From a virus (taxonomy: Duplodnaviria > Heunggongvirae > Uroviricota > Caudoviricetes), in the IMG/VR virus record IMGVR_UViG_2529293142_000008: a stretch of DNA of 16,588 nucleotides; one strand, 5' to 3'. This document shows positions 1,945 to 6,358 of this stretch, one piece after another. The position numbers and the translations under genes were made by a program. The notes under the pieces were generated by a model that made no database searches, was not told the DNA's origin, and was given only the letters and a program-made list of their open reading frames with translations. Numbering within the stretch: the stretch's first letter is position 1; each line of letters starts with the position of its first letter.

Positions 1945-2969
1945 ATGTCGATGTACACAACCGCCCAGCTGCTGGCGGCAAATGAGCAGAAATTTAAGTT
2001 TGATCCGCTGTTTCTGCGTCTCTTTTTCCGTGAGAGCTATCCCTTCACTACGGAGAAAGTCTATCTCTCACAAATTCCGGGACTGGTAAACATGGCGCTG
2101 TACGTTTCGCCGATTGTTTCCGGTGAGGTTATCCGCTCCCGTGGCGGCTCCACCTCTGAATTTACGCCGGGATATGTCAAACCCAAGCATGAAGTGAATC
2201 CGCAGATGACCCTGCGTCGCCTGCCGGATGAAGATCCACAGAATCTGGCGGACCCGGCTTACCGCCGCCGTCGCATCATCCTGCAGAACATGCGAGACGA
2301 AGAGCTGGCCATTGCTCAGGTCGAAGAGATGCAGGCCGTTTCTGCCGTGCTTAAGGGCAAATATACCATGACCGGTGAAGCCTTCGATCCGGTTGAAGTG
2401 GATATGGGCCGCAGTGCGGCGAATAACATCACGCAGTCCGGCGGCACGCAGTGGAGCCAGCGTGACAAGTCCACGTATGACCCGACCGACGATATCGAAG
2501 CCTACGCGCTGAACGCCAGCGGTGTGGTGAATATCATCGTGTTTGATCCGAAAGGCTGGGCGCTGTTCCGTTCCTTCAAAGCCGTCAGGGATAAGCTGGA
2601 TACCCGTCGCGGCTCTCATTCCGAGCTGGAGACAGCGGTAAAAGCCTGGGCAAAGCGGTGTCCTATAAGGGAATGTATGGCGATGTGGCCATCGTCGTGT
2701 ATTCCGGACAGTACGTGGAAAACGACGTCAAAAAGAACTTCCTTCCGGACAACACGATGGTGCTGGGGAACACTCAGGCACGCGGTCTGCGCACCTATGG
2801 CTGCATTCAGGATGCGGACGCACAGCGCGAAGGTATTAACGCCTCTGCCCGCTACCCGAAAAACTGGGTGACCACCGGCGATCCGGCGCGTGAGTTCACC
2901 ATGATTCAGTCAGCACCGCTGATGCTGCTGGCTGACCCTGATGCATTCGTGTCTGTACAACTGGCGTAA
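1945..2969 (+). pseudogene. E: major capsid protein E, frame interrupted by a 1-nt deletion near 2644-2645
   Basis: ATG 1945 (MSMYTTAQLLAANEQKFKFDPLF...). The N-terminal ORF runs to 2871 with an aberrant tail. The E C-terminus (SYKGMYGDVAIVVYSGQYVEN...FVSVQLA) is in the +1 frame as ORF 2658..2969. The span is 1025 nt against 1026 nt for 341 aa plus stop. Confidence 0.85.
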
Positions 2970-3420: not shown

Positions 3421-3795
3421 GTGGCTGATTTCGATAACCTGTTCGATGCTGCCATTGCCTGCGCCGATGAAACGATACGCGGGTACATGGGAACGTCAGC
3501 CACCATGACATCCGGTGAGCAGTCCGGTGCGGTGATACGTGGTGTTTTTGATGACCCTGAGAATATCAGCTATGCCGGACAGGGCGTGCGCGTTGAAGGC
3601 TCCAGCCCGTCCCTGTTTGTCCGGACTGATGATGTGCGGCAGCTGCGGCGCGGCGACACGCTGACCATCGGTGAGGAAAACTTCTGGATAGACCGGATTT
3701 CGCCGGATGATGGCGGAAGTTGTCATCTCTGGCTTGGCGGGGGGGGACCGCCTGCCGTTAACCGTCGTCGCTTGAAAGGGGGGGTATGGCCATAA
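3421..3795 (+). CDS. FII: head-tail connector protein FII, apparent stop-codon loss extending it 7 codons into Z
   Basis: GTG 3421 preceded by GGGAGG (3411-3416). The first 117 codons end in ...PPAVNRRR at 3771, the canonical gpFII length. Codon 118 is TTG (3772-3774) where a stop is expected, and the ORF reads LKGGVWP to TAA at 3793-3795. Confidence 0.8.
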   Translation: MADFDNLFDAAIACADETIRGYMGTSATMTSGEQSGAVIRGVFDDPENISYAGQGVRVEGSSPSLFVRTDDVRQLRRGDTLTIGEENFWIDRISPDDGGSCHLWLGGGGPPAVNRRRLKGGVWP

Positions 3796-4364
3796 AAGGT
3801 CTTGAGCAGGCCGTTGAAAACCTCAGCCGTATCAGCAAAACGGCGGTGCCCGGTGCCGCCGCAATGGCCATTAACCGCGTTGCTTCATCCGCGATATCGC
3901 AGTCGGCGTCACAGGTTGCCCGTGAGACAAAGGTACGCCGGAAACTGGTAAAGGAAAGGGCCAGGCTGAAAAGGGCCACGGTCAAAAATCCGCAGGCCAG
4001 AATCAAGGTTAACCGGGGGGATTTGCCCGTAATCAAGCTGGGGAATGCGCGGGTTGTCCTGTCCCGACGCAGGCGTCGTAACAAGGGGCAGCGTTCATCC
4101 CTGAAAGGTGGCGGCAGCGTGCTTGTGGTGGGAAACCGTCGTATTCCCGGCGCGTTTATTCAGCAACTGAAAAATGGCCGGTGGCATGTCATGCAGCGTG
4201 TGGCCGGGAAAAACCGTTACCCCATTGATGTGGTGAAAATCCCGATGGCGGTGCCGCTGACCACGGCGTTTAAACAGAATATTGAACGGATACGGCGTGA
4301 ACGTTTGCCGAAAGAGCTGGGCTATGCGCTGCAGCATCAACTGAGAATGGTAATAAAGCGATGA
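3786..4364 (+). CDS. Z: tail assembly / tail completion protein Z
   Basis: ATG 3786 after a G-rich Shine-Dalgarno. Gives 192 aa, the lambda gpZ length, in the expected position. Confidence 0.9.
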   Translation: MAIKGLEQAVENLSRISKTAVPGAAAMAINRVASSAISQSASQVARETKVRRKLVKERARLKRATVKNPQARIKVNRGDLPVIKLGNARVVLSRRRRRNKGQRSSLKGGGSVLVVGNRRIPGAFIQQLKNGRWHVMQRVAGKNRYPIDVVKIPMAVPLTTAFKQNIERIRRERLPKELGYALQHQLRMVIKR

Positions 4365-4757
4365 AACATACTGAACTCCGTAGCAGCCGTACTGGATGCA
4401 CTGGAGAAGCATGACACCGGGGCGACGCTTTTTGATGGTCGCCCCGCTGTTTTTGATGAGGAAGATTTTCCGGCAGTTGCCGTTTATCTCACCGGCGCTG
4501 AATACACGGGCGAAGAGCTGGACAGCGATACCTGGCAGGCGGAGCTGCATATCGAAGTTTTCCTGCCTGCTCAGGTGCCGGATTCAGAGCTGGATGCGTG
4601 GATGGAGTCCCGGATTTATCCGGTGATGAGCGATATCCCGGCACTGTCAGAGTTGATCACCAGTATGGTGGCCAGTGGCTATGACTACCGACGCGACGAT
4701 GATGCGGGCCTGTGGAGTTCAGCCGATCTGACTTATGTCATTACCTATGAAATGTGA
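4361..4757 (+). pseudogene. U: tail terminator protein U, frame interrupted by a 1-nt insertion near 4382
   Basis: ATG 4361 (MKHTELR) runs into TGA at 4412-4414 after 17 codons. The rest of U (...[59 protein letters not shown]) is in the next frame and ends at 4757. The span is 397 nt against 396 nt for 131 aa plus stop. Confidence 0.85.
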
Positions 4758-4764
4758 GGACGCT

Positions 4765-5505
4765 ATGCCTGTACCAAATCCTGTAATGCCGGTGAAAGGT
4801 GCCGGGACCACCCTGTGGGTTTATAAGGGGAGCGGTGACCCTTATGCGAACCCGCTTTCAGACGTTGACTGGTCGCGTCTGGCAAAAGTTAAAGATCTGA
4901 CGCCCGGCGAACTGACCGCAGAGTCCTATGACGACAGCTATCTCGATGATGAAGATGCGGACTGGACTGCGACCGGGCAGGGGCAGAAATCAGCCGGAGA
5001 TACCAGCTTCACGCTGGCGTGGATGCCCGGAGAGCAGGGGCAGCAGGCGCTGCTGGCGTGGTTTAATGAAGGTGATACCCGTGCCTATAAAATCCGCTTC
5101 CCGAACGGCACGGTCGATGTGTTCCGTGGCTGGGTCAGCAGTATCGGTAAAGCGGTGACGGCGAAGGAAGTGATCACCCGCACGGTGAAGGTCACCAATG
5201 TGGGACGCCCGTCGATGGCAGAAGATCGCAGCACGGTCACAGCGGCAACCGGCATGACCGTGACGCCTGCCAGCACCTCGGTGGTGAAAGGGCAGAGCAC
5301 CACGCTGACCGTGGCATTCCAGCCGGAAGGCGCAACCGACAAGAGCTTCCGTGCGGTGTCTGCGGATAAAACAAAAGCCACCGTGTCGGTCAGTGGTATG
5401 ACCATCACCGTGAAAGGTGTTGCTGCAGGCAAGGTCAACATTCCGGTCGTATCCGGTAATGGTGAACTTGCTGCGGTTGCAGAAATCACTGTCACCGACA
5501 GTTAA
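4765..5505 (+). CDS. V: major tail tube protein V with C-terminal Ig-like domain
   Basis: ATG 4765 preceded by GTGAGGA. Gives 246 aa ([22 protein letters not shown]...), intact. The C-terminal Thr/Val-rich beta-rich segment fits the known Ig-like domain of gpV. Confidence 0.92.
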
Positions 5506-5520
5506 TCCGGAGAGTCAGCG

Positions 5521-5943
5521 ATGTTCCTGAAAACCGAATCATTTGAACATAACGGCGTGACCGTCACGCTTTCTGAACTTTCAGCCCTGCAGCGTATTGA
5601 GCATCTCGCCCTGATGAAACGGCAGGCAGAACAGGCGGAGTCAGACAGCAACCGGAAGTTTACAGTGGAAGACGCCATCAGAACCGGTGCTTTTGTGGTG
5701 GCGATGTCCCTGTGGCATAACCATCCGCAGAAGACAAAGCAGCCTTCCATGAATGAAGCCGTTAAACAGATTGAGCAGGAAGTGCTTACCACCTGGCCCA
5801 CAGAGGCAATTTCTCATGCTGAAAACGTGGTGTACCGGCTGTCCGGTATGTATGAGTTTGTGGTGAATGATGCCCCTGAACAGGCAGAGGACGCCGGGCC
5901 TGCAGAGCCTGTTTCTGCGGGAAAGTGTTCGACGGTGAGCTGA
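5521..5943 (+). CDS. G: tail assembly chaperone G
   Basis: ATG 5521, 140 aa, ends in ...SAGKCSTVS. The slippery heptamer lies 6 codons before its stop. Confidence 0.9.
   Translation: MFLKTESFEHNGVTVTLSELSALQRIEHLALMKRQAEQAESDSNRKFTVEDAIRTGAFVVAMSLWHNHPQKTKQPSMNEAVKQIEQEVLTTWPTEAISHAENVVYRLSGMYEFVVNDAPEQAEDAGPAEPVSAGKCSTVS
5919..5925 (+). other. programmed -1 ribosomal frameshift slippery heptamer GGGAAAG (G to G-T)
   Basis: Heptamer G GGA AAG read directly in the G frame near the 3' end of G. It is the known lambda G-T slip site. Confidence 0.8.
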
Positions 5944-6358
5944 GTTTTGCCCTGAAACTGGCGCGCGAGATGGGGCGACCCGACTGGCGCGCCATGCTTG
6001 CCGGGATGTCATCCACGGAGTATGCCGACTGGCACCGCTTTTACAGTACCCATTATTTCATGATGTTCTGCTGGATATGCACTTTTCCGGGCTGACGTAC
6101 ACCGTGCTCAGCCTGTTTTTCAGCGATCCGGATATACATCCGCTGGATTTCAGTCTGCTGAACCGGCGTGAGGCTGACGAAGAGCCTGAAGATGATGTGC
6201 TGATGCAGAAAGCGGCAGGGCTTGCCGGAGGCGTCCGCTTTGGCCCGGACGGGAATGAAGTTATCCCCGCTTCCCCGGATGTGGCGGACATGACGGAGGA
6301 TGACGTAATGCTGATGACAGTATCAGAAGGGATCGCAGGAGGAGTCCGGTATGGCTGA
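5919..6358 (+). pseudogene. T: tail assembly chaperone T (G-T frameshift extension), interrupted by a 1-nt deletion in a T-run near 6056-6058
   Basis: The -1 frame from the slip site reads VFDGELSFALKLAREMGRPDWRAMLAGMSSTEYADWHRFYSTHY and then hits TGA at 6093-6095. The rest of T (HFSGLTYTVLSLFFSDPD...IAGGVRYG) is in another frame (ORF 6077..6358), overlapping the H start as expected. Confidence 0.75.

Follow-up and report, generated by a model that had tools for sequence, protein, structure and literature searches.

The closest described counterparts of the locus considered here come from lambda and the lambdoid prophages of Escherichia coli. In lambda, the major capsid protein gpE (PF03864) is encoded in the order C/Nu3-D-E-FI, and the same head and tail module contains the programmed −1 frameshift of G-T, in which two overlapping frames are joined by a −1 shift at a slippery heptamer that is conserved in all relatives. 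Lambdoid prophages with multiple lesions are real and common, and most of those in O157 Sakai carry frameshifts together with other defects, including deletions, IS insertions, and lesions common to clade-mates (PMC2669165). Apparent frameshifts can also be technical, and in nanopore assemblies Dcm motifs and homopolymers have been reported to be the dominant sites of consensus error (PMC6591954).

The stretch of DNA analysed here (16,588 nt, hereafter the window) resembles each of these in part. With lambda it shares gene E, the position of that gene, and, after repair of a single base, its length (341 aa) at 97% identity, but codon 234 is one base short, leaving a 308-aa product with 75 residues out of frame. 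As in G-T, two overlapping frames in the same module would be joined by a −1 shift; unlike G-T, the overlap has no heptamer and is unique to the window. The Sakai Sp prophages likewise have a lambda-like module in which head and tail genes carry frameshifts, whereas the window has 1-nt indels alone, and those in E and U are found nowhere else. Consensus errors of indel-prone sequencing are similar in that all lesions are single-base indels, two of the four being homopolymer shortenings and one abutting CCTGG, yet an insertion in U lies in neither context, and the window record may date from about 2011 (as judged from a UniParc number), before nanopore sequencing.

The Head and Tail Module

The window aligned end to end and in one piece with the morphogenesis region of Escherichia phage Lambda h434 imm21 (96.7% identity), and it represents a lambda-type head and tail module that is complete and collinear. 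It is matched as well by many lambda-type prophages of complete E. coli genomes, at 96%–97% for the best full-length matches; no whole-window match above ~97% was found among phage records or complete E. coli genomes. Annotations of lambda h434 imm21 and of E. coli A25 were mapped onto the window and corresponded one to one, giving the gene order end of B, C/Nu3, D, E, FI, FII, Z, U, V, G, T, H, M, L, K, I, J, lom, and start of stf. Of the 17 window genes, 13 are complete, from a normal start to a normal stop, the exceptions being D, E, U, and T. No IS element, deletion, or nonsense codon is present in the window genes. Exact look-ups of the window's J, H, L, M, K, lom, and FII proteins returned no match.

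Gene E and Its Reading Frames

Gene E lies at positions 1945–2969, between D and FI. An earlier note on this DNA, made from the sequence alone, had recognized in it the lambda major capsid gene, split into two ORFs in different frames by a 1-nt deletion near 2644–2645, and alignment bears out each part of that description. This is an ordinary lambda-type major capsid gene E (PF03864) at its usual place, not a chance pattern of ORFs. Its span is 1025 nt, as the note had counted, against 1026 nt in every relative examined. The 5′ reading frame (1945–2871, + strand) begins with the ATG of MSMYTT and runs for 308 aa to a stop at 2869–2871; its product consists of 233 native gpE residues followed by 75 that are out of frame (AWAKRCPIRECMAMW...). 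Counted from an upstream GTG, the same ORF covers 1918–2871 (317 aa). The 3′ reading frame (2595–2969, + strand) supplies native residues 235–341 and ends in FVSVQLA. It had been listed as 2658–2969, yet the open stretch of this frame begins at 2595, and GTG 2658 is merely the first start-like codon in it. The two frames overlap by ~275 nt. As written, the gene cannot be read as one ORF of ~341 codons, since the frame changes at 2644/2645, and the early stop of the 5′ ORF agrees with the note's statement that no full-length gpE can be made from it.

Both pairwise and multiple alignments place the lesion at 2644–2645 (+ strand), where the pairwise alignment to lambda h434 imm21 has a single gap. 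The missing base is nucleotide 701 of the gene, the A of codon 234 (GAC, Asp), which is absent between G2644 and C2645 and turns GAC into G-C. In its context, the window has GTA AAA G^CC TGG GCA where relatives have GT(A/G) AAA GAC CTG GGC; positions 2644–2652 of the window are GCCTGGGCA, and the corresponding codons 234–236 of relatives are GACCTGGGC, which includes the Dcm motif CCTGG. The site follows AAAAG (AAAAG^CCTGGG) and is not a homopolymer, but it directly abuts the Dcm motif, at 2645–2649. Re-insertion of the A yields an uninterrupted 341-codon E with ten amino acid differences from lambda gpE (97% identity), and the top database matches of the repaired protein all belong to PF03864 (96%–98% identity). 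A 16-bp hairpin at 2659–2713, inside the E coding sequence (MYGDVAIVVY region; −26.1 kcal/mol, z = −2.1), appears to be incidental.

A P4-like integrative element (L038, 10593–11385; L022, ~5229–9169; L023, ~4236–8399) interrupts the lambda-type E gene of some relatives at codon ~70–79 (window equivalent 2154/2180). The genes of this element include an integrase, AlpA, a D5_N primase, SSB, an E-like capsid protein of its own (346 aa), and a D-like decoration protein (113 aa), and in L023 also GmrSD-type and HEPN-domain genes. It represents a satellite within a helper-type capsid gene, an arrangement reminiscent of the chimeric lambdoid/P4-like Sp7 of O157 Sakai.

Other Frameshifts in the Window

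Compared with lambda and a 12-sequence alignment, the window has four private 1-nt indels (in D, E, U, and T), none of them shared by those relatives, and each throws a gene required for virion production out of frame. In gene D (1558–1908, + strand), a run of six A residues is reduced to five at 1846–1850, which results in a 116-aa product with an altered C-terminus. Gene U (4361–4757, + strand) has an inserted A at 4382, in codon 8 (CGT^A^GCA), so that the frame stops at codon 18; the extra base is absent from all relatives compared (42/42). Gene T, the frameshift part of G-T (5925–6358, + strand), has three T residues instead of four at 6056–6058, and its frame stops at codon 57. The lesions of D (A6) and T (T4) are in homopolymers, that of E abuts CCTGG outside any run, and that of U is in neither context. 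All four fall within the first 6.1 kb of the 16.6 kb, the remaining 10.5 kb being free of frameshifts. If placement were uniform, such clustering would have a probability of ~0.02; it is not accounted for by simple random error.

Two of the lesions are seen elsewhere. The A5 allele of D is listed in 27 blocks of a public collection, including assemblies with contigs above 1 Mb; ten of these places were fetched, and they span several D haplotypes, with carrier contigs that themselves differ by indels only. The truncated 56-aa T product is annotated also in E. coli DEC5B, where the surrounding sequence has only 96.4% identity with the window. The recurrence of the D and T lesions on unrelated haplotypes fits systematic length miscalls, and it fits real replication slippage too.

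Three further candidates were considered and rejected as lesions. FII (3421–3795) runs seven codons beyond the usual stop (124 aa versus 117) and overlaps the start of Z, but the 124-aa length is annotated in E. coli CD45, and this stop-loss is thus a natural allele and not a fifth lesion. A 1-nt indel at ~9935, in the L/K spacer, is polymorphic among relatives (13 versus 12). A cluster of substitutions in J (12054–12087) is neither a compensated frameshift nor an error but an in-frame patch found also in three IMG/VR contigs (L033–L035), which have differing head modules. This patch (~codons 247–258) encodes EKRT where lambda has QTRQ, and it is absent from the 8,865 J places found in complete E. 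coli genomes (best match 96.3%).

Rarity of the E Lesion

The intact sequence GACCTGGG is present in all 43 of the fetched relatives that cover the E site (43/43). A 91-nt query centred on the lesion matched 2,042 places in 1,403 complete E. coli genomes, as well as 35 phage records; the A is retained throughout, no match in either set reached 100%, and in the best (98.9%) the gap is the only difference. A 31-mer across the deletion had no hits in GTDB species representatives, IMG/VR, or JGI metagenomes. Across five collections, there was no DNA match that would place the E deletion in an independently sequenced relative.

At the protein level, the exact 308-aa truncated E is archived as UniParc UPI0002243774, a single archive entry that has no associated contig. 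An identifier only 582 numbers apart from it, UPI00022439BA, represents the exact I protein of the window. Numbering in UniParc is sequential, and the protein with accession AEZ38943.1, which we take to have been deposited early in 2012, is UPI00024C0748. From this numbering and that deposition date, the record with the truncated E would date to ~2011. A single annotated record of about that year therefore appears to hold both the truncated E and the I protein, and it may well be the window's own.

Substitutions versus Indels

A total of 56 related loci were fetched by way of BLAST hits and exact look-ups of intact window proteins. The closest of these are only ~96%–98% identical to the window; because the module is a fine-scale mosaic, there is no near-identical relative, and for this reason the comparison of indels with substitutions was made by counting private alleles against the 56 loci. 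Over all 16.6 kb, at most 11 substitutions are private to the window; seven are at codon position 3, and no more than four private changes affect codon positions 1 and 2. Private substitutions are lacking altogether in E, D, and U, where every nucleotide other than the indels is found in at least one of the 56 relatives. The nearest haplotypes of each affected gene are intact, and three loci have the D haplotype of the window save for the gap. The pattern of private substitutions indicates standing variation under purifying selection, not neutral decay.

In mutation-accumulation experiments with E. coli, base substitutions are roughly ten times as frequent as indels. With four real neutral indels, tens of unselected substitutions would thus be expected, and probably one or two nonsense codons. 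Signs of relaxed selection beside the frameshifts (unselected substitutions, nonsense codons, or larger damage) were looked for in the window, and none was seen.

Public contigs of the same module diverge in a similar manner. For instance, L040 and L044 are 99.9% identical and differ by seven single-base gaps and one mismatch in 7.4 kb, while L037/L039 and L036/L041 show one gap and no mismatches per pair. In L037/L039, a frameshift in Z is called in just one contig of the pair. As near-identical contigs differ almost solely by 1-nt indels, many of the apparent frameshifts of this gene family in public data are therefore assembly-dependent.

Single-Base Deletions around Codon 234

The 90%-identity cluster around the window's truncated E protein has 34 members. 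In nine of the 13 that were read, the frame changes within codons 234–236, at differing bases of GACCTGGGC, and the 308-aa truncated E proteins among those read have at least five distinct 1-nt deletion junctions. This concentration is partly built in, because the 90% cluster identity, the fixed stop, and an upstream stop at 2639 confine junctions to about codons 233–260. The varied junctions around the Dcm motif CCTGG suggest a hotspot of either error or mutation, in a sample biased by the way in which the cluster is constructed.

One possible reading is that GACCTGGGC is a genuine mutational hotspot that recurrently knocks out E in lambdoid prophages, with the window as a real case of this, perhaps leaky because of −1 slippage on the adjacent A4 run. 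If so, the varied 1-nt deletions in public assemblies would reflect biology and not basecalling. We consider this very unlikely.

Consensus Error, Decay, or Recoding

The earlier note had offered two alternatives, a defective phage or an indel in the assembly, and these are the two explanations that survive. It had also pointed out that the E site is outside any long homopolymer and had taken this to make a trivial error somewhat less likely than for D or T. The position is as it described, but the evidence on balance points in the opposite direction. The four private 1-nt indels come with almost no private substitutions, near-identical public contigs of the module differ almost solely by 1-nt indels, and many independent assemblies have 1-nt deletions at differing bases of GACCTGGGC, with its Dcm site; each of these favours an error of consensus. 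The same reading is favoured by the finding that one added A restores a 341-aa protein 97% identical to gpE, by the intact state of the nearest haplotypes of the affected genes (with no more than 11 private substitutions beside four frameshifting indels), and by the lack of other damage among the window genes. It is further favoured by the D and T homopolymer lesions, which recur on unrelated haplotypes as systematic length miscalls would. From the observed identity of the gene, the position of the lesion, its uniqueness to the window, and the indel-only pattern, we infer a technical rather than a mutational cause, and we put at about 0.6 the probability that the missing A of codon 234 is a consensus indel error of indel-prone sequencing or assembly. 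Such a process would have dropped this base as one of four single-base errors (in D, E, U, and T), possibly because reads of several similar lambdoid prophages were merged; the true gene would be a normal 341-codon E, and no defect of the phage head genes would be implied. Several observations go against this. The E and U lesions are outside homopolymers, and all four indels are crowded into the first 6.1 kb (~0.02 under uniform placement). The truncated E product is archived in UniParc, so that at least one annotated record, perhaps the window's own, carries it. Recurrence at A6 and T4 is expected also from real replication slippage, and real lambdoid prophages often have multiple lesions (PMC2669165).

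These last points bear also on the alternative that the E frameshift is a genuine recent mutation in a defective prophage gathering single-base frameshifts in the morphogenesis genes D, E, U, and T, which we regard as possible, at appreciably less than even odds. No gpE would then be made, each lesion alone would block or cripple virion production, and the prophage would spread only through complementation by, or recombination with, other lambdoid prophages. The state of most O157 Sakai lambdoid prophages, with frameshifts and other defects (PMC2669165), is in keeping with this, as are the occasional single lesions of RefSeq relatives (a lom frameshift in DCE7, a K frameshift in 2013C-4974, and an internal stop in C in CD45), the 27 blocks with the A5 allele of D (some in assemblies with contigs above 1 Mb), and the exact truncated E protein in UniParc (UPI0002243774). 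Other features of the window are harder to reconcile with decay. No relative has the E or U lesion in common with it, and there is no excess of unselected substitutions, nonsense codon, IS element, or deletion. Four indels against at most four private changes at codon positions 1 and 2 are far from the expected mutation spectrum. After the first lethal hit, there would be no selection for three more, and slow accumulation should have left other scars.

It is also conceivable that the E deletion is real but bypassed, with tRNA-Lys slipping by −1 on GUA AAA G; the AAA at 2641–2643 would re-pair with 2640–2642 and reading would continue on AGC CUG GGC AAA, giving full-length gpE with D234S. A run of four A residues is located exactly at the lesion, the predicted product differs from repaired E at residue 234 only, GGAG is found 8 nt upstream, and a 16-bp hairpin follows downstream (−26.1 kcal/mol, z = −2.1). 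However, the zero frame has no X XXY YYZ heptamer, just GUA AAA G with its four-A run; the hairpin starts 15–26 nt past the slip site, farther than the usual 5–9 nt spacing of stimulators, and every relative has it as ordinary E coding sequence. None of the 43 fetched relatives and none of the 2,042 complete-genome places conserves the two-frame arrangement (0/43 and 0/2,042), and a capsid requires ~415 copies of gpE, beyond what background slippage would supply. We regard recoding as the least probable of the explanations, extremely unlikely to account for the gene.

Implications

A cluster of single-base frameshifts in an otherwise conserved module, unaccompanied by substitutions, should be treated first as a signal about data quality. 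Neither outcome, consensus error or prophage decay, is novel; the locus is ordinary either way. If the indels are real, the window would add another example to the defective lambdoid prophages whose head and tail genes are inactivated, a well-documented state. If they are errors, the record, in which D, E, U, and T need to be repaired or flagged, understates what is apparently a complete lambda-type prophage.
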